Source: Escherichia phage vB_EcoM_P8. From it: a stretch of 64,000 bases of DNA. Location: sequence record PV390659.2, one strand, 5' to 3'. The notes under the pieces were generated by a model. The model was not told where the DNA came from. It ran no database searches and worked only from the letters and a program-made list of their open reading frames with translations. The translations under genes were made by a program, and so were the position numbers. Shown here piece after piece: positions 9,568-43,658 of the stretch. Numbering within the stretch: the first letter of the stretch is position 1; every line of letters begins with the position of its first letter.

Positions 9568-9596
9568 TTTACAGAAGGGTAGTAGTGTGATACTAT
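9567..9596 (+). promoter_or_regulatory. Early promoter
   Basis: GTTTAC at 9567-9572 with -10-like GATACTAT; imperfect inverted repeat GGGTAGTAG/CTATTACCC around it. Confidence 0.4.
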
Positions 9597-9621
9597 TACC
9601 CTATCAACTAAGGAGAATAAA

Positions 9622-17778: not shown

Positions 17779-17833
17779 GTTTACAAGTCCCTCGTGATGT
17801 GTTACAGTAGTCTTACTGACATAACATGAGGAC
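17779..17833 (+). promoter_or_regulatory. Early promoter plus conserved leader, copy 1 (upstream of alc)
   Basis: GTTTACAAGTCCCTCGTGATGTGTTACAGTAGTCTTACTGACATAACATGAGGAC; 50/55 identical to copy at 33241-33295. Confidence 0.5.
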
Positions 17834-17839
17834 TTTATG

Positions 17840-19210: not shown

Positions 19211-20414
<1,204 letters not shown>

Positions 20415-20611
20415 TGGCGTGGCATCATGAAACTTGGTCTATTGTTATTGTAAATAGCGGTTTAGTTGGTACTAGTAATGGGCAATTTTGTGTATTCACT
20501 AGTGAAATCAGAGCTTGGGAGGAATGTCTTAAATTAAGAGAAAAGAATCCTGATGTTGAACTAACAGTAAAGAAAACTAAACTGCCTTTACCATGGAAAA
20601 CTTATGAATAA
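20415..20611 (+). CDS. Hypothetical protein (cd.5-like position)
   Basis: 65-aa ORF from ATG at 20415 (MAWHHETWS...). Confidence 0.4.
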
Positions 20612-20804
20612 CATAGAAAAGATTTATCGACTTTGTGATAAAATTGAAAAAGAAAAGAAATATCTATTTTGTTTATGGCCTATTGTTGATGGAAGAGTAG
20701 ACTTAGATATTCTTGATTATGAAACAGAAGACATAGTAGATGGTTCAACTTTTGATAATGCGTTGGATGTTATTAATTGGCTTGAAGAAAATTATGTGAG
20801 GTGA
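20604..20804 (+). CDS. Hypothetical protein
   Basis: 66-aa ORF. Confidence 0.4.
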   Translation: MNNIEKIYRLCDKIEKEKKYLFCLWPIVDGRVDLDILDYETEDIVDGSTFDNALDVINWLEENYVR

Positions 20805-21082
20805 ATATGTTTCCGACTTATTCTAAAATCGTAGAAGTAGTGTTTAGTCAAATTATCGCTAATAATATGTTTGAAAAGCTTGATAACGCAGCCGAGCTTC
20901 GAATTCATGCTCAAGTGACTCATGTATTGAACACTTTGCTTCCAGACCAGGTGGATTCTATTGCAATTACGCTGTATCCGGGTTCCGCGCATATCATTGT
21001 CGTATTTGGTCTTGATGCTGAGCTAGTCATCAAAGGTGATATTCGCTTTGAATCACAGACATCAGAATTCAAGGCAATTTAA
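20801..21082 (+). CDS. Hypothetical protein
   Basis: 93-aa ORF. Confidence 0.4.
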   Translation: MNMFPTYSKIVEVVFSQIIANNMFEKLDNAAELRIHAQVTHVLNTLLPDQVDSIAITLYPGSAHIIVVFGLDAELVIKGDIRFESQTSEFKAI

Positions 21083-21084
21083 TA

Positions 21085-21128
21085 GTTTACTTTTTGGTAG
21101 AGTTGTGATATTATAGCTCTACCAAAAA
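21085..21128 (+). promoter_or_regulatory. Early promoter with 12-bp inverted repeat around the -10
   Basis: GTTTAC 21085-21090; TATTAT 21109-21114; arms TTTTTGGTAGAG (21091-21102) and CTCTACCAAAAA (21117-21128). Confidence 0.5.
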
Positions 21129-21145
21129 CAAATGAGGAAATTGAA

Positions 21146-21382
21146 ATGCTAAGTGAAAAACCAATTACTGTTAAAGAATTTCAAGAAAAAGTTAAACTAT
21201 TTGCTCAGGAATTGGTAAATAAGGTTTCTGAACGATTTCCTGAAACATCGGTTCGTGTTATTACCGAAACTCCTCGTTCAGTATTAGTAATTGTGAATCC
21301 AGGTGATGGTGACCAAATAACACATCTTAAACTGGATTTTGATGGATTAGTTGAAGCACAAAGGGTGTATGGCGTACTATGA
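21146..21382 (+). CDS. Hypothetical protein
   Basis: 78-aa ORF with SD GAGGA (21133-21137) and early-type promoter upstream. Confidence 0.5.
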   Translation: MLSEKPITVKEFQEKVKLFAQELVNKVSERFPETSVRVITETPRSVLVIVNPGDGDQITHLKLDFDGLVEAQRVYGVL

Positions 21383-21717
21383 TGAATTTAACTGATATAA
21401 TTGATAATTGTCTTGAAAATGATACTGGCGATCATAGAGCGCTTGATTCTGAAACAGCACAGTTCATTAGAATAACTTTAATGAATGATACTCTAGTGAA
21501 TAGCATTCATCCTTCTGTGTATGATGCTATTATTGTGACGAAGTATCCAGTTGAGCTTCACAAAAAGATGGCTGGTGCAATTTTCATTGATAAGAAAAAC
21601 CGCTTTAAAGATGGGCAGAATATAATTAGTTCTGTTATTAAAAGTATAACTAAACTTCGTCACGAAATTTATCGTGTTGAAACTGCTAAATCTGCTTATC
21701 TGGTGATTATGAAATGA
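21379..21717 (+). CDS. Hypothetical protein
   Basis: 112-aa ORF; stop overlaps cd start. Confidence 0.45.
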   Translation: MMNLTDIIDNCLENDTGDHRALDSETAQFIRITLMNDTLVNSIHPSVYDAIIVTKYPVELHKKMAGAIFIDKKNRFKDGQNIISSVIKSITKLRHEIYRVETAKSAYLVIMK

Positions 21718-22295
21718 AAGCGAGTACAGTACTTCAAATTGCATATTTAGTATCACAAGAATCAAAATGTTGCTCCTGGAAGGTAGGAGCAGTAATTGAA
21801 AAGAATGGACGTATTATTTCTACCGGATATAATGGTTCACCTGCCGGGGGTGTGAATTGCTGCGATTATGCTGCTGAGCAAGGTTGGTTGCTGAATAAGC
21901 CTAAACATACTATCATTCAAGGTCATAAGCCTGAATGTGTATCATTTGGTTCAACTGATCGTTTTGTCTTGGCGAAAGAACATCGCAGCGCTCACTCTGA
22001 ATGGTCGTCTAAAAATGAAATTCATGCTGAACAAAATGCGATTTTGTTTGCTGCACGAAATGGTTCTTCAATTGAAGGTGCTACTATGTATGTAACACTT
22101 TCTCCTTGCCCAGATTGTGCAAAAGCAATAGCTCAATCTGGAATTAAAAAGCTAGTTTATTGCGAAACATACGATAAAAATAAACCTGGCTGGGATGATA
22201 TTCTGCGAAATGCAGGTATTGAAGTGTTTAATGTTCCTAAGAAAAACTTGAATAAGTTAAACTGGGAAAATATCAACGAATTCTGTGGTGAATAA
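21714..22295 (+). CDS. cd: dCMP deaminase
   Basis: 193 aa; cytidine/dCMP deaminase zinc-binding motifs (HAEQNAI ... PCPDCAKAI). Confidence 0.9.
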   Translation: MKASTVLQIAYLVSQESKCCSWKVGAVIEKNGRIISTGYNGSPAGGVNCCDYAAEQGWLLNKPKHTIIQGHKPECVSFGSTDRFVLAKEHRSAHSEWSSKNEIHAEQNAILFAARNGSSIEGATMYVTLSPCPDCAKAIAQSGIKKLVYCETYDKNKPGWDDILRNAGIEVFNVPKKNLNKLNWENINEFCGE

Positions 22296-22531
22296 TGAAA
22301 TTTCGTTTGGTACAGCTCACAGCAATTAGTTCTTATTCTAACGAGAACATTTCATTTGCTGTAGAGTATAAGAAATATTTTTTCTCTAAATGGAAGCAGT
22401 ATTATAAGTCAGAATGGGTTTGTATTGATAGACCTTATAGTTGGAAATCTGATTTAGAAAAATGCCAAAAGTTGCTTTCCACTCTTAAAGAACGTGGAAC
22501 AACCCATATTAAAACTGTGATAGGCAAATAA
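22295..22531 (+). CDS. Hypothetical protein (31.2-like position)
   Basis: 78-aa ORF. Confidence 0.4.
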   Translation: MKFRLVQLTAISSYSNENISFAVEYKKYFFSKWKQYYKSEWVCIDRPYSWKSDLEKCQKLLSTLKERGTTHIKTVIGK

Positions 22532-22840
22532 ATGAAACTGACGACTGAACAAAAAGTAGCAATTCGTGAAATTTTGAAAACTAAATTGTCCATGGGTATT
22601 TCAAACGTGGTTTTTGAAAAGTCTGATGGTACTATTCGTACTATGAAAGGTACTCGTGATGCAGACTTTATGCCAACCATGCAAACCGGTAAATTGACTG
22701 AATCTACTCGGAAAGAATCTACTGATATGATTCCAGTATTTGATGTTGAACTCGGTGCATGGCGAGGTTTTTCTATTGACAAATTGATTTCCGTTAATGG
22801 CATGAAAGTTGAGCATTTGCTTCAATTTATTGGTAAATAA
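22532..22840 (+). CDS. Hypothetical protein (31.1-like position)
   Basis: 102-aa ORF. Confidence 0.45.
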   Translation: MKLTTEQKVAIREILKTKLSMGISNVVFEKSDGTIRTMKGTRDADFMPTMQTGKLTESTRKESTDMIPVFDVELGAWRGFSIDKLISVNGMKVEHLLQFIGK

Positions 22841-22896
22841 ATGCTTTAAGAATTATTTGTTATTATTAATTCATCTGTTAACAAAAAGGAAAAACG

Positions 22897-23232
22897 ATGT
22901 CTGAAGTACAACAGCTACCAATTCGTGCTGTCGGTGAATATGTTATTTTAGTTTCTGAACCTGCACAAGCCGGTGATGAAGAAGTTACAGAATCAGGACT
23001 TATTATCGGTAAACGTGTCCAAGGTGAAGTTCCTGAACTGTGTGTAGTTCACTCTGTTGGTCCTGATGTTCCTGAAGGTTTCTGCGAAGTTGGTGATTTG
23101 ACTTCTCTTCCAGTTGGTCAAATTCGAAACGTTCCGCATCCTTTTGTAGCTCTGGGTCTTAAGCAGCCAAAAGAAATTAAACAAAAATTCGTTACTTGTC
23201 ACTATAAAGCTATTCCGTGTCTTTATAAGTGA
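22897..23232 (+). CDS. 31: Head assembly co-chaperonin gp31 (GroES-like)
   Basis: 111 aa, [30 protein letters not shown]...; matches T4 gp31. Confidence 0.9.
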
Positions 23233-23379
23233 TATAAATAATAATATGAATTGGGTGTCGGAATAATAAGTTAACCGAACAATTCTATGTGGTAGTCTAC
23301 AACTGAGAGATCTGTCGAAAGAAGATGAAATTCAGAAGAACGTGACTACCGAGTTTTAATCTCTAACGAGAATTTTTAA

Positions 23380-23628
23380 ATGATTAAACAATTACAACAC
23401 GCTCTTGAACTGCAACGAAACGCATGGAATAATGGTCACGAAAACTATGGCGCATCTATTGATGTTGAAGCCGAAGCCCTTGAAATCCTGCGTTATTTCA
23501 AACATCTGAATCCTGCTCAAACTGCATTAGCTGCTGAGCTCCAGGAAAAAGATGAACTTAAATATGCTAAGCCTCTGGCTTCTGCTGCACGAAAAGCAGT
23601 TCGTCACTTTGTGGTAACACTGAAGTAA
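23380..23628 (+). CDS. rIII: Lysis inhibition accessory protein rIII
   Basis: 82 aa; size and position downstream of gene 31 as in T4. Confidence 0.65.
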   Translation: MIKQLQHALELQRNAWNNGHENYGASIDVEAEALEILRYFKHLNPAQTALAAELQEKDELKYAKPLASAARKAVRHFVVTLK

Positions 23629-24026
23629 TTTATTGGAGATTCACTGCCCTAGTGTGAGCTAAAATCGAGGAGCCGTCGAACTGTCTGATTAATGATTTGC
23701 GAATAATTATAGTTTTAAGACCCCGACAGTTTTACGGTGTACCTCTTGAATGTTATTCTTATAGCGGCAAGTGCATGCTACCCCGAGGTGATGGCCAATC
23801 GGGAGTACGCCTCAAGGCCTATATATCCATCAGTATATATCTTATCCTCGAGAAATCGAACCCGGAACCTTTAAGCTAACGGTGTGCAACAGATAAGAGC
23901 TATAAGGTATGATGACGGGTTTATGGTTATCCTGGTCGTTAAATATTCAAAAACCTATGTTCCCCTTGAGGGCTTGCGCAGGCAATGCCAATAAGTCCTG
24001 CATTTTCATTTAAAAGAGAATTTATA

Positions 24027-24203
24027 ATGGCAAAACAAGCTAAAGCAAAGAAAGCAGTTGAAAAGAAAGTTGGTGATTCTAAACGCGCTGGTTACAAGCG
24101 TGGGTCGAACTCTCGTATCAATCAAACTGTTGAGAAGATCATGCGCCGAGCACGTGCGGTTCTTCGAGATGATGCTTCTCGTTTTGGTAAGCAGAAAGCA
24201 TAA
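24027..24203 (+). CDS. Hypothetical small basic protein (30.9-like position)
   Basis: 58 aa from MAKQAKAKKAVEKK...; followed by a strong terminator. Confidence 0.45.
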   Translation: MAKQAKAKKAVEKKVGDSKRAGYKRGSNSRINQTVEKIMRRARAVLRDDASRFGKQKA

Positions 24204-24208
24204 GTTGA

Positions 24209-24236
24209 GGACTCCTTCGGGAGTCCTTTTTTATTT
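24209..24236 (+). terminator. Intrinsic terminator
   Basis: GGACTCC-TTCG-GGAGTCC (UUCG tetraloop) followed by TTTTTTATTTT. Confidence 0.65.
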
Positions 24237-24256
24237 TCCAAAGATTACACAAAGTT

Positions 24257-24306
24257 GTTTACAGTATAGTTCCTTTGTGATAGTATTATCTCATACAAAC
24301 AAAGGA
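24257..24306 (+). promoter_or_regulatory. Early promoter with inverted repeat reaching the downstream SD
   Basis: GTTTAC 24257-24262; A/T-rich -10 region; arms TCCTTTGT (24271-24278) / ACAAAGGA (24299-24306), the 3' arm overlapping SD AAGGAG. Confidence 0.45.
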
Positions 24307-24313
24307 GAATAAA

Positions 24314-24646
24314 ATGAAAACGATTAATCTGAACGCTACAGTTAAAACTAAATGCTTCAACGGTAAATATGATGAAACTATGTGGTTCTTAATGGCAGTT
24401 GAAGGTGATATTATTGAAGTAGAAACAACAGAAGGTATGGGAACAGATTTCACCTTTACAATTCAAGTTCATAATTTCTTTACTGGTTGGATTTATGAAT
24501 TGAATACAGTAATCGTTGGAAAAATTGAACAAAATGAATTAGGTGAATGGTATTATGTTACAGCTCGCCAACGTGCCGAACGCTTAATTGAGAAGATGAA
24601 AAAAGTTGGTAAACTTGACATGCAGCACTGGAAAGTAGTAAAATAA
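24314..24646 (+). CDS. Hypothetical protein
   Basis: 110-aa ORF with SD AAGGAG and early promoter upstream. Confidence 0.5.
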   Translation: MKTINLNATVKTKCFNGKYDETMWFLMAVEGDIIEVETTEGMGTDFTFTIQVHNFFTGWIYELNTVIVGKIEQNELGEWYYVTARQRAERLIEKMKKVGKLDMQHWKVVK

Positions 24647-24648
24647 TT

Positions 24649-24688
24649 GTTTACTTTGGTACAGGATATGATATTATATACCTGTACC
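24649..24688 (+). promoter_or_regulatory. Early promoter with 8-bp inverted repeat around the -10
   Basis: GTTTAC 24649-24654; TATTAT 24673-24678; arms GGTACAGG (24658-24665) / CCTGTACC (24681-24688). Confidence 0.5.
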
Positions 24689-24714
24689 GCAATTAAACAT
24701 CTCGGAGAATAAAA

Positions 24715-25080
24715 ATGAATTACATCAACTTTGAACGTAAATATGTTTCTAACGGTATTGCAGGTTCTATTGATACTATCTGCCTTTGGAAACATCAAAA
24801 TGGATCAGTATGCGAAATTGAACAGTATATGACTCCTAACTACGTTTATATGCGATTTGAAAATGGCATCACGGTTTCAATCACGAAAGAAGGTTCTTCT
24901 TTTAAAATCGCATTGGATGATGATTTTCGTCAACGCGATTTAGGGACTCATCCTTGCTGGAATGGCGTTAATCGCAAGCTTCTGGTTAAAACTTGGATTC
25001 GTCATATTCTGAGTAACAGAGCTAAACCTGAGCATCTTGAAGCAATCTTTGATGTAGTTCTTAACGAATTTGATATTTAA
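24715..25080 (+). CDS. Hypothetical protein
   Basis: 121-aa ORF with SD GGAGAA and early promoter upstream. Confidence 0.5.
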   Translation: MNYINFERKYVSNGIAGSIDTICLWKHQNGSVCEIEQYMTPNYVYMRFENGITVSITKEGSSFKIALDDDFRQRDLGTHPCWNGVNRKLLVKTWIRHILSNRAKPEHLEAIFDVVLNEFDI

Positions 25081-25090
25081 AATAAAATGA

Positions 25091-25104
25091 GGGGCTTCGG
25101 CCCC
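25091..25104 (+). terminator. Stable UUCG hairpin (weak terminator or RNA stability element)
   Basis: GGGGC-TTCG-GCCCC; downstream run is not U-rich. Confidence 0.35.
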
Positions 25105-25121
25105 TTACTGAGGAAAATACT

Positions 25122-25409
25122 ATGTTTATGACTACTTATTTTGATACCCGCAAAAATTTCTGTGAAGTGGTTTTCTCTAAGGCACCTAAAGACCTTCCTG
25201 CTCATTTGCAGCCTACTAGTGAATCGATTAAAAACTATGTTAATGTAGTCTGCCCTTTAGAGTTCCGTACTGTAAATGGCCGCGATACTTTAGCTATCAC
25301 TAAACTTAATCGTGAAATTGACATTGACCCTTCAATTGCGCGTGAAATTAACATTTCTGATATTGGCGGCGGTAATGTTAAATCGCATGGTTTTCAGATG
25401 AGGTTCTAA
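25122..25409 (+). CDS. Hypothetical protein
   Basis: 95-aa ORF. Confidence 0.45.
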   Translation: MFMTTYFDTRKNFCEVVFSKAPKDLPAHLQPTSESIKNYVNVVCPLEFRTVNGRDTLAITKLNREIDIDPSIAREINISDIGGGNVKSHGFQMRF

Positions 25410-25606
25410 TGAAATTCTTTTTAGGTCAAACTGTTGAATTAAAGGGAGTTGGTATACCTGGATTAATTTCTAAGGTTCTACCTCCATTTAAATGGAGTGG
25501 TATTCAAATAAAAGAGGCTTATATTGTTTCCTGGGTAGATGGAAATGAAGACCTTCGTATGGGTGATGAATTATCTCCTATTTACGGATTAAAGGAATTA
25601 GTATGA
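25409..25606 (+). CDS. Hypothetical protein
   Basis: 65-aa ORF; overlapping start/stop with neighbours. Confidence 0.4.
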   Translation: MKFFLGQTVELKGVGIPGLISKVLPPFKWSGIQIKEAYIVSWVDGNEDLRMGDELSPIYGLKELV

Positions 25607-25809
25607 ATATAATTAATAAGATTTTTGGAATTCAGTACATTAAGGTCACATATAAAGTAACGTATAAAGGTCCGTATACCGATGAATATGAAGAGCCGCA
25701 AGTTCAGTCTATTATATTAGAAAAGGACCCTAACTGGCCAGTTGAATTTCGTCTTCCTTGCTATGGTCATTGGGCTGATGTTGAAATTATAAGTATTGAA
25801 AATGTCTGA
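25603..25809 (+). CDS. Hypothetical protein
   Basis: 68-aa ORF. Confidence 0.4.
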   Translation: MNIINKIFGIQYIKVTYKVTYKGPYTDEYEEPQVQSIILEKDPNWPVEFRLPCYGHWADVEIISIENV

Positions 25810-26260
25810 GTTAGAGATAAGAAGCAATTTTAGATGGCCATCATGCGCATTAAGTAATTTCGCCCAATGGCCTTTCGTTATGGATGGTATTCAATTTGGA
25901 GGTCTCGAAGGATTCCTCCAAGGATGCAAGGTGAAAAATGTTGAACAACAGCGTCGTATATTTGGGTTATCCGGGCTTGCCGCCCAACAAGCTGGAAGGT
26001 CTTATGCTAGAGCTCAGGACCGTGGCACGTTGTTCTGGCTTGGAACTCCGTTTTCAAGATATTCCGAAGCATGGAAAGAATTATACACAAATGCATATTT
26101 TGAAGCAGCGATCCAAAACAGGGGCTTTCGCGATGCATTACAAGCCTCGAAAGGAAAAGTTTTGAAGCACAGCATGGCTAGTGGTCTAACAAAAGATGAT
26201 ACAATACTAACCGAAGCTGAATTTATTGATGTGTTAAATCTATTAAGAGACTCTCTATGA
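25796..26260 (+). CDS. Hypothetical protein (30.3-like position; possible NADAR/YbiA-like fold, unverified)
   Basis: 154-aa ORF; family suggestion is from memory of T4 30.3 annotation, not confirmed here. Confidence 0.4.
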   Translation: MKMSELEIRSNFRWPSCALSNFAQWPFVMDGIQFGGLEGFLQGCKVKNVEQQRRIFGLSGLAAQQAGRSYARAQDRGTLFWLGTPFSRYSEAWKELYTNAYFEAAIQNRGFRDALQASKGKVLKHSMASGLTKDDTILTEAEFIDVLNLLRDSL

Positions 26261-31183: not shown

Positions 31184-33241
31184 ATGGAACTTATTACAGA
31201 ATTATTTGACGGCGCTTCGGCGCCGGTTGTTAACTTAAATCCCAAGCATAAAATACCTCAAATTTTTGCTATTCAAGCCGGTGAAGAAAGCGTGCTTCCT
31301 GGATTTAGATTTTGTACATACACCTCTGGCGGTGATACAAATAAAAACGTTAAGCCAGGCGATAAAATGATGCATATCGTAATGATAGGTGTCAATGAAA
31401 AGCTATCATTAGTTAAACTTAAAAACTTAGGTGGAAATCCAATTGGTGTCATTAATGCGGTTTTTGATACTGCTCTTCAAACAATGAAACAGTATAAAAT
31501 TGACGCATGCCTGTTCCGCGTACTAAAGAGTAAAACAAACGGTGCAGCTCGTCAAATGCAAGTTATTGCCGACCGTTTAGTACGTACCAAAGGAGCAGGT
31601 CGATATGTTCTTTTAAAGGAAATCTGGGACTATGATAAAAAGTATGCATATATTATGGTTTACCGTAAAAATGCTAATTTAGAAGACATTCCAGGTGTAC
31701 CTCCTATTTCAACTGAGTTATTCACAAAAGTTGAATCAAAGGTTGGTGATGTTTATGTAGACGTTAAAACAGGTAATGCTGTTCATAAAGCTGTCGCTGT
31801 TGCTGCTTCTATTGCCTTAGAAAATGATAAGCGCACGGATCAAGCTGTTATTCAGAAAACTAAAATTAGTCGTCGATTAGCAGCACAAGCTCAATACTCT
31901 ACTGTCGATGCTTCACTTCAGGGTGATAGCTTCGCTGCTAAGAAATATCAAGAGTTTGAATCTAAAGTTCCGGTATATAAAGCAGAAGGACCAATGAACT
32001 CCGGCGTTATTCAGGTTGGTTCAAACTTCAGCAAAGGAGCTATCGGTGGTATGAGAAGTGCTTCTCGTTTTAAATCTAATGATTATGAACTAGAAAGCTT
32101 CCGAAATCATATTGCATTGGCTCATGCACGTTTACGTGATCCATCTATCAAGCTGCAGAGCGATATAACATATCAAGGTTCTCAAGAATATTTAAAGAAT
32201 AAAGAATTTTTTGATTATAAAACTGATAAAATTTTAAGCGATCTCGCTGACATTAATATTTCTAATAGCTTTGATGTTATTAAGAAAATTATCAATGATT
32301 TAGTTAAAGGTTCTAAAGCCACGCCAGACGAAAAGGTAGCTATTGTTCAATTTGTCATGAATGGCATTTATAAATTGATTAATGAGTCTGCTTCTCAAGC
32401 GTATGAATATGCAAGTACTGAAGTACCCCCAAAAGGATTAACTCAGGCTGAGTCTGATGTAATTGAAGATTATTGCGCGGATTCATATGTTGAAATGAAC
32501 TCGTTCCTTTTAGGTAAACCGGATTCTACTCGTGAAGAATATATGGAACGAGCTATTAAACACATCGAGACGATGGATTCTGCTTTTGCCAAAGGATCAG
32601 TTCTTCCTCCAGGAACTACGCTTTACCGTGGCCAAGAAGTTACCTTTAAAACTTTACGTCATAATATTGAAAATAAAATGTTCTATTTTAAGAACTTCGT
32701 ATCCACATCGCTTAAACCAAATATCTTCGGTGAGTATGGTAAAAACTATATGGCTCTAGATGATTCCAGCGCAGTATTTTCTGGTGAAGGAGAAGGTTCT
32801 GTTGACGCAGAAGATTTGATGCATATGGGCAGTCACTCTGCTTATGCGAATGAAGATGCTGAAACTAGCGTAGGTATGGTAATAAAAGGAGCTGAGCGAA
32901 TCAAAGTTATCGTTCCGGGTCATTTATCAGGATTTCCGTCAGAAGCTGAAGTTATTTTACCACGTGGAATTTTGCTGAAGATTAATAAAGTGAGCACGTA
33001 CATGATGAAAGAAACTGCTTATAACAAGTATTTAATCGAAGGTACAATCGTTCCTCCTTCTGAACAATTAGAAGAATCGGTATATGATGGCGATCATCTG
33101 ATGGAAACTGGTGAAGTTCGTCCAATGGCTGGATTTAATCAATTCCTTGTAGAAGAATCAAAAGAAGAGGAAAACGAAGTTTCTCAAATCTTGGCTTCTT
33201 TGGTTAACATCAACGGAATGTCTAAAAAGTTCAAGATGTAG
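31184..33241 (+). CDS. Alt-like ADP-ribosyltransferase paralogue
   Basis: 685 aa; N-terminus MELITELFD... and C-terminal catalytic region (YRGQ, NFVSTSLK, EAEVILPRG) align with the upstream alt; central region diverged. Confidence 0.75.
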   Translation: MELITELFDGASAPVVNLNPKHKIPQIFAIQAGEESVLPGFRFCTYTSGGDTNKNVKPGDKMMHIVMIGVNEKLSLVKLKNLGGNPIGVINAVFDTALQTMKQYKIDACLFRVLKSKTNGAARQMQVIADRLVRTKGAGRYVLLKEIWDYDKKYAYIMVYRKNANLEDIPGVPPISTELFTKVESKVGDVYVDVKTGNAVHKAVAVAASIALENDKRTDQAVIQKTKISRRLAAQAQYSTVDASLQGDSFAAKKYQEFESKVPVYKAEGPMNSGVIQVGSNFSKGAIGGMRSASRFKSNDYELESFRNHIALAHARLRDPSIKLQSDITYQGSQEYLKNKEFFDYKTDKILSDLADINISNSFDVIKKIINDLVKGSKATPDEKVAIVQFVMNGIYKLINESASQAYEYASTEVPPKGLTQAESDVIEDYCADSYVEMNSFLLGKPDSTREEYMERAIKHIETMDSAFAKGSVLPPGTTLYRGQEVTFKTLRHNIENKMFYFKNFVSTSLKPNIFGEYGKNYMALDDSSAVFSGEGEGSVDAEDLMHMGSHSAYANEDAETSVGMVIKGAERIKVIVPGHLSGFPSEAEVILPRGILLKINKVSTYMMKETAYNKYLIEGTIVPPSEQLEESVYDGDHLMETGEVRPMAGFNQFLVEESKEEENEVSQILASLVNINGMSKKFKM

Positions 33242-33295
33242 TTTACAAGTCCCTCGTGTTGTGTTATAATAATCTTACTGACATAACATGAGGAA
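33241..33295 (+). promoter_or_regulatory. Early promoter plus conserved leader, copy 2
   Basis: GTTTACAAGTCCCTCGTGTTGTGTTATAATAATCTTACTGACATAACATGAGGAA; -10 TATAAT at 33265-33270. Confidence 0.55.
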
Positions 33296-33301
33296 CACAA
33301 A

Positions 33302-37991: not shown

Positions 37992-39111
37992 TTTTAACCT
38001 TAACTGGATCTATTGTTTCCAGTTTCGTTGCATTAGTGAACATATATAGATGAGTTACTGAATTATTATTGGATAATTCATGGATGACTTCATCAACGTA
38101 AAATTCTGTTTTAAATTGGTTTTTACTATCATTAAAAATAATTTTAACGCCAGGGGTTAAGTTAAAATTACCGACAGTAGAACATTTAGCATAGCCATCG
38201 TATTGCGCCATAGTTTGAAGACGAATAGCTTCTTCATATCCATTCCTATAAGTCATTTCAGAATAAGCACCTGACCTTGACACTACAATAGAGTTTTCGC
38301 CCTTTCCTGTAGTAATCATTGGCAATGAAGAATCTAAAAATGAATGCGCATAGATAGTAGCGTTTTTCATTGGGTCACGTTTGTGAGGATTTGATTTAGT
38401 CAACCAAACGAAATCATATGCTAATGGATATTTTAATTCTTGGATAAATTGACCTATTAAAGATGGCTCACCGACAATCATCGGATACGGTTCTTGATTT
38501 ATCATCATATCATAGTCCATCATGTTAACTCCCATGATGTCTTGCCACACAAATACAAATTTGTCACTTCCTACAGCTAGAGCAACTTCTCTGACATATG
38601 ACAAATAGTTTTCAAATGTACTAGTCCACGGAATATCAGGAACATAAGCATTTATAGCATTTATTGCTGGAGTTAATAACGTGCGATCCTGATAAATGAC
38701 ACCAAGCATTTCCTTTATAGATTCACCTGCATCAGAGAAAAACGGTCTGCCAAATTTAAGATTTTCTATAGAATGAATAGTTCCCAATTCAATAGCAATG
38801 ATGTTATCACCCTTTGAATCTACTGACACGGAAAAATGCTTACATCCATAAATTCTTGTTTTAACATTATTAATATCGTTTGCATTAGCTACAGAAATCT
38901 GAATTATTTCATTTCCATCCATTTTTGTATGGATGTTTTTAGAATCATAAAACTGCAGCATTCCTTCATTTCGGCCATAAAGAGAATCCCGCATAGTTAA
39001 TGTGGTAATAGTAGCAGCTAATTCAACAAATCTATTATTACTCCAAGCGTCATAGCTATCAAATAATTTAACGCTGAGATTTGGATATCCTGGGCGTTGC
39101 AACATACTCAT
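37936..39111 (-). CDS. 27: Baseplate hub subunit gp27
   Basis: 391 aa, equal to T4 gp27. Confidence 0.85.
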
Positions 39112-39860
39112 TATTGTTTATCCTTCTCAATCAGTTTTAATACGAATCCGCGCTCAGCAGGAATCATTTTCATTATTGAATTTAAGCTATAATTACTTTT
39201 TACAAGCGTGTGATTAATTTGATAAAAAGTAAATATTTCATCTGGGTTAACTAATAGCTTAAACACATCTACTATATCAGTGTATTTTTTTACATACTTG
39301 TCACAACAGGACATGTGTAGCGTTAAATTAATAGGATTCATTGCATCAAGAATTTTTTCTAATGTTTCTATCTCGATTGCATCAACAAGTTCTATTTGAC
39401 TTGATTCGCTAATTTCCTTCCAATCATACCATGTTTCATCTACTTGAACAGAATGAATATTTTCAGTAATCATCTTTGCTTTATTTTCATAAAACTCAGA
39501 AGGAAACTTTAATTTAATTTTAACATTAGCTACATCAAAAACAGGTTCCTTTAATTCTTTTTGATATATTTCAAATGGAACTGTCTTTTCTTTTTTACAT
39601 TTTGGACATACAAATGTGACCGGTACTTTAGTTTTACCTATTGACCCTACAAATACCTGCAAAAATATAAATGGTTGCCAAGTCTTCGGATAGTCTCCAA
39701 AATAATCAGCAATTAAATCAGCAATTATTTCTTTTTGTTCTTGTGGTGACCGATGTTCTATATCGTTTCGAACTAACAAAAAATCTCGATAATCTTCTAC
39801 CGTAAATGGTTTAAAACGATGAACACCATCTGGTAATTTACAACGAATAATGTTTGCCAT
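39111..39860 (-). CDS. 51: Baseplate hub assembly protein gp51
   Basis: 249 aa, equal to T4 gp51; divergent from gene 26. Confidence 0.8.
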
Positions 39861-39878
39861 AGATGCTCCTTTTATTCT

Positions 39879-39890
39879 ATTTATAAATAT
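39879..39890. promoter_or_regulatory. Overlapping divergent late promoters for genes 51 (-) and 26 (+)
   Basis: Palindromic TATTTATAAATA: TATAAATA on + (39883-39890) and on - (39879-39886) in the 50-bp divergent gap. Confidence 0.55.
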
Positions 39891-39910
39891 GATAAATAAA
39901 GGAGCTAAAT

Positions 39911-40537
39911 ATGTATGAATACAAATTTGATGTGAGAGTTGGTTCTAAAATAATCAACTGTCGCGCATTTACTCTTAAAGAATATCTAGAACTTATTACT
40001 GCTAAAAAGAACGGTTCAGTAGAAGAGATCGTTAAAAAGCTAATCAAAGACTGTACAAATGCAAAAGATTTAAACCGCCAAGAATCAGAACTACTATTGA
40101 TTCATTTATGGGCACATTCTCTTGGAGAAGTTAATCACGAAAACTCCTGGAAGTGCACCTGCGGAACTGAAATACCAACCCATATAAATCTATTACATAC
40201 ACAAATAGATGCACCAGAAGACCTCTGGTATACACTGGGTGACATTAAAATTAAGTTCCATTACCCTAAAATTTTTGATGATAAAAACATAGCCCACATG
40301 ATAGTATCATGTATAGAAACAATTCATGCTAACGGTGAAAGCATTCCAATTGAAGACTTGAATGAAAAAGAGTTGGAAGATTTATATTCTATCATCACAG
40401 AGTCAGATATTGTAGCTATAAAAGATATGCTTTTAAAGCCTACTGTTTATTTGGCTGTTCCAATTAAGTGTCCAGAGTGTGGAAAAACTCACGCTCATGT
40501 AATAAGAGGACTCAAAGAATTCTTTGAGCTATTGTAA
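39911..40537 (+). CDS. 26: Baseplate hub subunit gp26
   Basis: 208 aa, equal to T4 gp26. Confidence 0.8.
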
Positions 40538-42146: not shown

Positions 42147-43658
42147 TTATAAATTAACTGTTTTCATTACGTAATTAAATTTTTCATCTGCGTATCGCTG
42201 AATACGATCAATGCCGTGTTTTAAAAGATAGTTCAAATGAACATATTTCTTTTTCGTATTAGCAGATTTTGGCTTAACACCACAATCATCGATGAGGTCC
42301 CAGACCGTTGCGATTGTTTTAGAACCATGCTTACGTAATACGCGACCTATTGTTTGCAATACAATAATTTTAGATTTAACGCCGTGCGCTAAAACAACGT
42401 GATGCAGATTTTTAACTGAAATACCAGTAGAAAATACACCATAACTAGCTACTATAATTATTCCTTTACCGTTTTCAGCTAGGGTTTTCATTACATTGCG
42501 CGTTTCAGTATCAACTTCTCCTGATACGTAATAAACTTTATCGTATTCATTTTTAATTAAATCGAAAATAGCTTTACCATGTGATACATGCTTAAACATG
42601 ACAAAAGCGTTTTCATCTTTTTGTGCAAGTTTAATAGCTAATTTAGCGATCCATTTATTTCTTTTACTGAGCCCAGTAATAATTTTTATTTCTTCTTGGT
42701 AAGTTTTTCCCTTTAATTTAGTAGTGAACTCATCGGGATAGCGAAGAAAAATACTATTAATTTTTAACTCAGTTACTTGTCCATCTTCCATTAATTTAGA
42801 AGTCGTTACTGGTTTAAATATTTCACCAAACATTCCAACATACTGCATGATATTAGCTTTGCCATCACGCAATGAACCTGATAGACCAAATTTAAACATG
42901 CAGTTATTTAAACCTGATATGATAGATGAAATACTTTTTCCTGTGGCAAGATGGCATTCATCATTCATCATCATTCCAAACTGTGAGAACCATTCTTTTG
43001 GTTGTTTTACTACAGTTTGCCATGTACCAACAATTACCGGTGCATCATTTTTATATTTATCATCTTTTGATGCTCCGCCACCAATTTTCTTTATCATTGC
43101 ATGACTGAATAAACGATAATCAACAAAGTCATCAGCCATCTGAGTTGTCAGAGCAGTTGTTGGAACAATGATAAGAATTTTACCTTCATAATTTTCCAAA
43201 TAATAACGTGCAAGCAAAGCTTGAATTAAAGATTTACCTGCGGATGTTGGAAGATTAAGAATTCTACGACGATTAACTAATCCTTCGAACACTGCATCTT
43301 TTTGATACCAATGCGGTTCAATTCTTTTATTTCCTGAATGGATTTCTAATTTAGAAATCCATTCATCAAAATCTTTTCTTGATAATTCTTCTTTTTCGTT
43401 AATTTGTGGGTCAATCCAGGCTTTATAGCCAAAGTTATCACAGAACTTTTTAATTTGCCCGACTAAGCCGAACGGAAGAAGGCGATTATAATCTAAAAGA
43501 CGGATTCGTCCATCCCAGTGACCATATTTGTATTTCGGATTAAAACGATACCCTTCAGCTTCAAAGCTAAAGAAATCACGGAGTTCATGAAATGTACTTT
43601 CTTCACAATCAATTCTCACGTGACTAAAATCATAAAAATGTACTTTAATGTCAGTCAT
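42147..43658 (-). CDS. uvsW: UvsW DNA/RNA helicase (SF2)
   Basis: 503 aa; helicase motifs (Walker A-like TSAGKS, DECH box). Confidence 0.9.
   Translation of the reverse strand: MTDIKVHFYDFSHVRIDCEESTFHELRDFFSFEAEGYRFNPKYKYGHWDGRIRLLDYNRLLPFGLVGQIKKFCDNFGYKAWIDPQINEKEELSRKDFDEWISKLEIHSGNKRIEPHWYQKDAVFEGLVNRRRILNLPTSAGKSLIQALLARYYLENYEGKILIIVPTTALTTQMADDFVDYRLFSHAMIKKIGGGASKDDKYKNDAPVIVGTWQTVVKQPKEWFSQFGMMMNDECHLATGKSISSIISGLNNCMFKFGLSGSLRDGKANIMQYVGMFGEIFKPVTTSKLMEDGQVTELKINSIFLRYPDEFTTKLKGKTYQEEIKIITGLSKRNKWIAKLAIKLAQKDENAFVMFKHVSHGKAIFDLIKNEYDKVYYVSGEVDTETRNVMKTLAENGKGIIIVASYGVFSTGISVKNLHHVVLAHGVKSKIIVLQTIGRVLRKHGSKTIATVWDLIDDCGVKPKSANTKKKYVHLNYLLKHGIDRIQRYADEKFNYVMKTVNL

Follow-up and report, generated by a model that had tools for sequence, protein, structure and literature searches.

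Why should the -10 element of a strong early promoter lie in the loop of a perfect inverted repeat? The question is raised by positions 21,085 to 21,128 of a 64,000-nucleotide (nt) stretch of Escherichia phage vB_EcoM_P8 (PV390659.2; we call this whole stretch the window), where a sequence-only reading had picked out such a repeat, together with two more at other early promoters, and had listed protein binding, cruciform formation, RNA processing in read-through transcripts and masking of the Shine–Dalgarno (SD) sequence as possible roles. The three perfect repeats, each with the -10 in its loop, are found exactly where they had been placed (21091-21128, 24658-24688 and 24271-24306; sites 1, 2 and 3 below). 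They are real, but a description confined to three sites is too narrow, as the architecture is genome-wide: about half of the early promoters in this T4-like phage sit within a hairpin that can form in read-through RNA. We consider it probable, though well short of certain, that the inverted repeats are the DNA imprint of sense RNA hairpins in transcripts that read through the promoter from the upstream gene.

Three early promoters within inverted repeats

Over region 20000-26000, the window matches Escherichia phage vB_EcoM_BMB16 at 100% identity, many Tequatroviruses at 96-98% and T4 at ~97%; judged by its sequence, the window phage is a Tequatrovirus. Roughly 700 genomes of Tequatrovirus and Mosigvirus have a match to the region. 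The early-gene strand is the plus strand of the window and the minus strand of T4. The annotated T4 record and Pfam matches place site 1 between cd.3 and cd.2 (DUF7320), site 3 upstream of 30.8 (PF06019) and site 2 between 30.8 and 30.7 (PF06919). Each site has a predicted promoter of the same build, with an exact GTTTAC -35, a spacer of 17-18 nt, TGn and a -10, followed by an SD and an ATG. The site 1 promoter is named Pe133295 in the T4 record (AF158101), and the record of phage fPS-90 (NC_055723) carries the annotation 'predicted early promoter' at all three sites. The features, including the open reading frame (ORF) upstream of site 1 and a terminator upstream of site 3, are as follows.

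20801..21082, plus strand: cd.3, the ORF upstream of site 1; its stop TAA (21080-21082) lies 2 nt before the site 1 -35, with no terminator between
21085..21090, plus strand: site 1 -35 GTTTAC (T4 Pe133295)
21091..21102, plus strand: site 1 5' arm TTTTTGGTAGAG, within the promoter spacer
21103..21116, plus strand: site 1 loop at the DNA level, TTGTGATATTATAG, 14 nt, with TGn at 21106-21108 and -10 TATTAT at 21109-21114
21117..21128, plus strand: site 1 3' arm CTCTACCAAAAA; the assumed transcription start, ~21121, is inside the arm
21134..21148, plus strand: site 1 SD GAGGA (21134-21138) and cd.2 ATG (21146), both predicted to be free in both transcript types
24207..24236, plus strand: canonical intrinsic terminator GAGGACTCC-TTCG-GGAGTCCTT with T-run, directly upstream of the site 3 promoter
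24257..24262, plus strand: site 3 -35 GTTTAC, gene 30.8 promoter (T4 Pe~130274)
24270..24278, plus strand: site 3 5' arm (T)TCCTTTGT in the spacer (perfect arm 24271-24278); -10 TAGTAT at 24281-24286
24299..24307, plus strand: site 3 3' arm ACAAAGGA(G) (perfect arm 24299-24306); 30.8 ATG at 24314
24649..24654, plus strand: site 2 -35 GTTTAC, gene 30.7 promoter (T4 Pe~129883); the 30.8 ORF including its stop ends at 24646
24658..24665, plus strand: site 2 5' arm GGTACAGG; 15-nt loop, -10 TATTAT at 24672-24677
24681..24688, plus strand: site 2 3' arm CCTGTACC; SD GGAG at 24704-24707, ATG at 24715

The predicted RNA folds extend beyond the perfect arms at two of the sites. At site 1, UUGUG and UAUAG give five extra pairs, which leave a 4-nt loop (21108-21111), and the whole predicted structure of site 2 spans 24648-24699, its -35 pairing with a downstream UAAACA. 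The loop of site 3 is 20 nt long, and its 3' arm overlaps the SD (AAGGAG, 24302-24307), as had been noticed from the sequence.

Enrichment and upstream context

The set examined comprises the 38 promoters on the early strand of the whole BMB16 genome that have GTTTAC, TGn and a -10 and are followed by SD and ATG. For each, the 30 nt preceding the -10 and the 45 nt following it were searched for their longest stretch of perfect complementarity. The expectation came from three controls (random positions in the genome, shuffled flanks, and chimeras in which the left flank of one promoter was joined to the right flank of another). Nine of the 38 promoters have perfect arms of at least 8 bp, where about one is expected (permutation P<5e-5), and 13 have arms of at least 7 bp, against about three. 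Within the window, three of the eight strong early-type promoters have a bracketing repeat of at least 8 bp. Since the window holds 69 perfect repeats in total (arms of at least 8 bp, loops of 3-30 nt), such repeats are not rare as such, and it is their position that is unusual.

Folding the 50-nt segment around each -10 as RNA, with chimeras providing the expectation, gave z<-2 for 22 of the 38 BMB16 promoters. Folds of -14 kcal/mol or lower occur at 17 promoters (1.5 expected) and folds of -17 kcal/mol or lower at 14 (0.5 expected); in T4 itself, 18 out of 37 promoters have z<-2. The occurrence of these structures is non-random, and the suggestion that they recur beyond chance is borne out by this genome-wide scan against controls. 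In an independent folding tool, the sense minimum free energy is -20.7 kcal/mol (z -5.3) for site 1 and -20.1 kcal/mol (z -4.5) for site 2. Hairpins of -11 kcal/mol or better enclose six of the eight strong early promoters of the window (9567, 17779, 21085, 24257, 24649 and 33241), and none at this threshold was found at promoters 5545 and 8845. The three further cases are listed here.

9574..9605, plus strand: promoter-enclosing hairpin of promoter 9567, -15.9 kcal/mol
17790..17831, plus strand: promoter-enclosing hairpin of the alc promoter 17779, -19.0 kcal/mol, with SD GAGGA inside the 3' arm
33252..33293, plus strand: promoter-enclosing hairpin of promoter 33241, -20.4 kcal/mol, a ~55 bp near-identical copy of the 17779 cassette

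The association with hairpins is much weaker for middle-like promoters (one of five with z<-2) and late promoters (four of 19), both of which are small samples.

The hairpins are exclusively tied to junctions at which an ORF without a terminator meets a promoter. In BMB16, each of the 17 promoters whose hairpin reaches -14 kcal/mol or lower abuts a co-directional upstream ORF, whose stop codon lies 0-23 nt before the -35, and no canonical terminator was found within 110 nt upstream of any of these 17. Only three out of 16 hairpin-less BMB16 promoters have the same context (Fisher P=1e-6), and a canonical terminator precedes six of the 16. T4 is similar, with the unterminated-ORF context at 12 of 14 hairpin promoters and 3 of 15 hairpin-less ones (P=7e-4). 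Because hairpins and canonical terminators upstream of promoters are mutually exclusive, early junctions are of two forms, either ORF, terminator and promoter, or ORF and promoter-in-hairpin. The distance from the stop codon to the stem is mostly 6-14 nt.

An intrinsic (Rho-independent) terminator consists of a G+C-rich stem and a loop of 3-8 nt, followed by a run of U. A consensus scan detected the terminator upstream of site 3 (24207-24228) and did not score sites 1-3 themselves, whose tails (AAAAACAAAT, GCAATTAA and GAATAAAA, respectively) have no U-tract. On this consensus scan, we rejected an intrinsic-terminator reading of the three sites.

Strand signature and conservation of the stems

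Four lines of evidence indicate that the structures belong to sense-strand RNA. Arms from different promoters have unrelated sequences (TTTTTGGTAGAG, GGTACAGG, TCCTTTGT, AGTTGGCAAG, AGCTGATAGA and others), which excludes a shared protein half-site; a palindromic operator would be expected to show a similar half-site at the promoters it regulates, and none is seen. The excess in stability over composition-matched shuffles is -6.1 kcal/mol for the sense strand and -3.3 kcal/mol for the antisense strand (Wilcoxon P=4e-5). G·U pairs make up 51 of 312 bp in sense stems and only seven of 249 bp in antisense stems, even though the promoter flanks are A+C-rich and chance alone would favour the antisense strand. 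The bias persists when pairs touching the conserved promoter core are left out (21/184 sense vs 6/162 antisense; in T4, 15/164 vs 6/151). Of the roles considered in the sequence-only reading, an RNA role in read-through transcripts is the one favoured, by the sense G·U excess, by the compensatory and wobble changes described next and by the restriction of hairpins to promoters abutting an unterminated upstream ORF. Protein binding and cruciform formation are both disfavoured by the unrelated arms, the many G·T positions at the DNA level and the loops of 14-20 nt.

The collection of relatives in IMG/VR (five loci for the cd.2 protein and nine for the 30.8 protein) was too small for covariation, and GenBank phage records were used. 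The stems are conserved with covariation. For example, one pair of the T4 Pe57954 hairpin is A-U in T4, G·U in T6, T2, KIT06 and pSs-1, and G-C in BMB16. In another example, the trna.4 promoter has three different spacers that pair, in differing registers, with the same downstream TACCCTATC. Between strict T4/BMB16 orthologues, 13 transitions are wobble-compatible and four are of the A·C type. At site 1, the arms GGTAGAG/CTCTACC are shared by T4, G8 and fPS-90 (Tequatrovirus), extending to 12 bp in the window phage; the Mosigvirus phi25-307 has GGTGGAG/CTCTACC, with one G·U, and the Dhakavirus JS98 has CGGTAGGAC/GTCCTACCG, changed on both arms. In the alignment of eight site 1 sequences, 89.6% of the cells pair, compared with 31-54% for slid partners, and three pairs are changed on both sides. 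The arms of site 2 are invariant in three genera, and its loop and downstream leader diverge. At site 3, an SD-burying helix is maintained in three genera with unrelated sequences (TTCCTTTGT/ACAAAGGAG in Tequatrovirus, CTCTCC/GGAGAA in Mosigvirus and TCTCCGGT/ACTGGAGA in JS98). Conservation of the arms among related phages, on which the sequence-only reading had made its case depend, is thus found, with G·U intermediates and compensatory changes such as that of JS98 at site 1.

The recent history of site 1 can be read in part from two comparisons. In T4 this site has only a 7-bp perfect arm (TTTACGGTAGAG ... CTCTACCAAAAC; L001 9293-9326, minus strand), and the window phage (21091-21128) differs from it by a clustered AC to TT change and one extra A, giving 12 perfect bp; the lengthening looks like a quasipalindrome-correcting event. 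In the 1985 clone of T4 pseT (X03007), the site 1 loop (window 21103-21116; T4 133300-133313; L021 553-566) is present as its inverted complement, CTATAATATCACAA, a difference that the T4 genome record marks as a corrected sequence. The inversion destroys the promoter spacing, and it may reflect selection of the clone against a toxic strong promoter, a template switch or a sequencing artefact of the hairpin. It is in any case a warning that such dyads are prone to cloning and sequencing artefacts.

The surroundings of these promoters are plastic. An extra ORF of 528-555 bp without a Pfam match lies between the promoter, SD and ATG of site 1 and cd.2 in fPS-90, JS98, RZ and numerous Tequatroviruses (L022 4796-5323; L033 3748-4302; L034 659-1201); the window phage, T4 and G8 do not have it, and the junction is at the start codon (window 21146). 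In G8, 30.8 and 30.7 are missing next to site 3. The cassettes at 17779-17835 and 33241-33297, which lie 15.5 kb apart, are near-identical over ~55 bp (GTTTACAAGTCCCTCGTG.TGTGTTA.A.TA.TCTTACTGACATAACATGAGGA); both form an SD-containing hairpin and both are potential recombination substrates. In Dhakaviruses (L014-L018; L033 6960-7450), the promoters of 30.8 and 30.7 are identical over a right half of ~40 bp (..TGTACCAAATAATACGAAAACAAACTGGAGAATAAAATG); they form a tandem cassette repeat on either side of one small gene, as in the mini-circle model of PeSLs (early promoters with stem-loops, discussed below). The promoter cassettes of denV (G50029 / T4 Pe65378) and nrdC.10 (G61804 / T4 Pe55348) are unrelated between T4 and BMB16; the denV SD is buried in a hairpin in both versions, and the nrdC.10 promoter hairpin is found only in BMB16 and KIT06. 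In T6 (L026 11445-12462), the lysozyme gene e is immediately followed by regB; T4 has the ipII/ipIII/denV/vs block between the two genes, and in T6 this block is missing or displaced, an illustration of how plastic this promoter-rich region is.

Two other repeats of the window fall outside this group. A perfect 8-bp repeat at 39865-39905 (GCTCCTTT/AAAGGAGC), around a late-promoter-like TATAAATA, was considered as a fourth case and rejected; it is made of two divergent ribosome-binding sites, which serve the ORFs 39111-39860 (minus strand) and 39911-40537 (plus strand). The longest perfect repeat (43335-43365, arms of 14 bp, TGAATGGATTTCTA/TAGAAATCCATTCA, with a 3-nt loop; ~0.02 expected by chance) maps, by its coordinates on the BMB16 record, inside a helicase ORF (uvsW-like).

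Proposed mechanism and competing explanations

Masking of the SD, one of the roles suggested from the sequence, holds for site 3, where the predicted probability that the SD is unpaired is 0.03 in read-through RNA and 0.92 in the promoter's own transcript; it does not hold for site 1 (0.79 in both) or site 2 (0.77 and 0.56), where the SD is free. Genome-wide, the mean unpaired probability is 0.33 in read-through RNA and 0.54 in own transcripts, and values <0.3 are reached at 18 of 38 promoters in read-through RNA and at only five in own transcripts.

These folds suggest how the hairpins may work. The 5' arm lies in the promoter spacer, with TGn and the -10 looped out or held in weak G·U pairs, and the 3' arm lies between the -10 and about +8, starting 0-3 nt after the -10 in one group (class A, with sites 1 and 2) and further down, at the SD, in the other (class B, with site 3, 17779 and 33241). 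If transcription starts ~7 nt after the -10, as we assume, the promoter's own transcript lacks the 5' arm, so that the hairpin could form only in RNA entering from upstream, and the fate of the downstream cistron would be set by which promoter made the RNA. In class B the SD is in the 3' arm, and the read-through RNA is predicted to be masked and the own transcript to be open. In class A the hairpin ends 4-19 nt before a free SD and most likely stands in for a terminator hairpin where the junction leaves too little room for one. It could act as an intercistronic barrier, as a protector of the upstream cistron against 3'-exonucleases after downstream cleavage, or as a pause or attenuator for read-through RNA. 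We infer start positions, hairpin formation in vivo and the functional outcomes (masking, barrier and attenuation); the surrogate role is the most likely one for sites 1 and 2, since the hairpins are confined to places that lack a terminator hairpin. A broader proposal, which we regard as possible and put forward tentatively, is a genome-wide layer of post-transcriptional insulation, in which the early promoter at every compact terminator-less junction of ORF and promoter would be placed in a hairpin formed in read-through RNA only, with one subclass burying the SD and another acting as barrier or attenuator.

Several observations weigh against the reading of the repeats as imprints of read-through RNA hairpins. 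The fold of site 3 (sense minimum free energy -11.2 kcal/mol, z -1.5) is marginal and not significant alone. The antisense RNA of site 2 folds nearly as well as the sense RNA (-18.3 vs -20.1 kcal/mol), and the promoter consensus itself, by pairing UGUG with UAUA, supplies part of the sense G·U excess. In the small covariation sample of site 1 (eight sequences), 66 of 500 shuffles yield at least as many double changes as observed. A broad clustering of all promoter 50-mers (at most 10 mismatches) gave 19 sense-only and 14 antisense-only variable pairs, which makes the substitution-based strand test weaker than the within-genome G·U test; this clustering mixed mosaic and paralogous promoters, and strict T4/BMB16 orthologues and within-genome G·U counts were used instead. 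The transcription start, 7 nt after the -10, is an assumed rather than a mapped position. At sites 1 and 2 the SD is not masked, so a function can only be proposed for them; they also have no U-tract and do not resemble terminators in the consensus scan.

The closest known elements are the PeSLs that Arbiol et al. (2010, PMC2839356) and Comeau et al. (2014, PMC4122927) described in plastic regions of T4-type genomes. These authors interpret them both as recombination linkers and as transcription terminators or attenuators, and mention AT-rich analogues on T4 early promoters at internal protein (IP) loci (PMC2839356, PMC4122927). Both systems combine a strong early promoter with a stem-loop in a short intergenic spacer directly before SD and ATG, and both are found in plastic early regions beside small ORFs and indels; in phi1 and RB49, the stem-loop commonly overlaps the -10 or sits between -35 and -10. 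But the stem-loops published for T4/PST are shown immediately 5' of the promoter and the phi1/RB49 stems are of the form G(n)...C(n), whereas the stems described here are AT-rich, with promoter-specific sequences and G·U pairs, and have no U-tract to go with the published role of terminator and recombination linker. Sites 1-3 have a predicted early promoter immediately upstream of SD and start codon and a stem-loop that encloses the -10 (-20.7, -20.1 and -11.2 kcal/mol, respectively), and the neighbourhood is hyperplastic (site 1, and site 3 next to the G8 loss; denV; nrdC.10). As for a role as linkers, promoter cores and some promoter halves are repeated (17779/33241), and the stems of sites 1-3 are unique, with no shared motif. 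The elements thus fit the PeSL kind and are not a new kind of element.

Taken as a full explanation, the published view would make the hairpins true terminators or attenuators of upstream transcription, and promoter and stem-loop together repeated cassettes mainly for recombination and modular gene shuffling. It is the strongest of the competing explanations, and still an unlikely one. It draws support from the stem-loops that overlap the -10 in phi1 and RB49, one of which terminated like rrnB T1 (PMC2839356), from the extension of the concept to the PST/T4 pair (PMC4122927), from the mutual exclusion of hairpins and canonical terminators seen here, from the indels next to promoters (the 528-555 bp gene after the site 1 promoter in fPS-90, JS98 and RZ, and G8 without 30.8 and 30.7), and from mosaic promoter halves and the repeated cassettes 17779 and 33241. 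However, hairpins of the T4 type lack a U-tract, their apical regions are large or weak and the scan does not score them as terminators, the stem assayed in RB49/phi1 is G/C-rich, unlike the type found here, the indel junction of site 1 is at the ATG, outside the promoter homology, and recombination alone would scramble the complementarity of the arms rather than maintain it. We give less weight to translational coupling, in which the hairpin would loop out 40-50 nt of promoter and bring the upstream stop near the downstream SD for reinitiation. Hairpins do shorten functional distances in the initiation regions of T4 genes 38 and 25 (PMC3014915), and the distances here (mostly 6-14 nt from stop to stem, and 3-19 nt from stem to SD in class A) would suit such a role; but in such small intergenic spaces the distances can hardly be other than short, and class B hairpins bury the SD rather than present it.

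That the palindrome acts at the DNA level, either as the operator of a dimeric regulator or as a cruciform through which early promoters are modulated or shut off, is very improbable. The perfect dyad symmetry centred on the -10 at sites 1 and 2 would suit it, the folds of single-stranded DNA are also significant (z ~-4), and the mechanism of early-promoter shut-off is stated as unknown (PMC2988021, PMC3014915). But arms that differ from promoter to promoter, many G·T positions and the strong asymmetry between sense and antisense led us to reject it; in addition, loops of 14-20 nt disfavour cruciform extrusion, the feature is found at only about half of the promoters, and its presence tracks the upstream transcriptional context, which an operator would not need. 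Least credible of all is that the repeats are a non-adaptive by-product, generated by template-switch (quasipalindrome) mutation or by chance complementarity in AT-rich intergenic DNA. The clustered AC to TT change relative to T4 at site 1, which took the perfect arm from 7 to 12 bp, and the inverted loop of the 1985 T4 clone are both typical products of template switching. Yet the ~10-fold enrichment over all controls largely refutes this explanation, and it does not account for the conservation of structure across genera with different sequences, the strand-specific G·U bias or the strict association with context. Sense RNA hairpins in read-through transcripts remain the reading we prefer.

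Two further groups of known structures resemble the hairpins in part. Translation of the T4 genes e, soc, 49 and I-TevI is controlled by a hairpin that has a promoter in or beside its 5' arm; long read-through transcripts hide the SD or AUG in a helix, and transcripts from the internal promoter are open (PMC3014915). Site 3, 17779 and 33241 share this promoter-in-hairpin geometry. The published cases differ in having late (or middle) promoters and delaying expression, whereas here the promoter is early and the logic is reversed, expression being tied to the early promoter; sites 1 and 2 also differ, in that they leave the SD unmasked. Of the three sites, only site 3 is predicted to pair its SD in upstream-initiated RNA (unpaired probability 0.03, against 0.79 and 0.77 for sites 1 and 2). 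The own transcripts would lack the 5' arm and be open by geometry, given the assumed start within or after the 3' arm.

Rho-independent terminators and barriers of the repetitive extragenic palindromic (REP) type are stem-loops at the 3' side of the upstream cistron in polycistronic mRNAs. The hairpins described here resemble both in that position, but differ from intrinsic terminators in having no U-tract, in their larger apical regions and in overlapping a promoter; their role as barrier or attenuator is putative.

A literature search for maps of T4 transcript 5' or 3' ends, or for dyads at early promoters, returned only the PeSL papers and two reviews (PMC2988021 and PMC3014915). Neither a prevalence figure for T4 or a sense-RNA G·U signature, nor an SD-masking subclass of early promoters or a strict exclusivity with terminators, is described in the available sections of PMC2839356, PMC4122927, PMC2988021 and PMC3014915. 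The general rule (~50% prevalence, selection on the RNA strand and terminator exclusivity) therefore goes beyond what these sections of the PeSL papers and T4 reviews describe.

The PeSL concept would be refined by such hairpins, from a terminator and recombination linker to an RNA structure under strand-specific selection. For the engineering of T4-like therapeutic phages, edits in seemingly 'neutral' promoter spacers could alter the fate of mRNAs. If the hairpins work as we infer, strong promoters can be packed directly behind genes without interference from read-through RNA, and the translation of some early genes is tied to the activity of their own promoters, which bears on the unexplained early shut-off. 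Should the broader insulation layer prove true, genes of the SD-burying subclass would be translated only from their own early promoters, and the silencing of the early promoters would then be part of the reason, so far unexplained, why early protein synthesis is shut off so rapidly.

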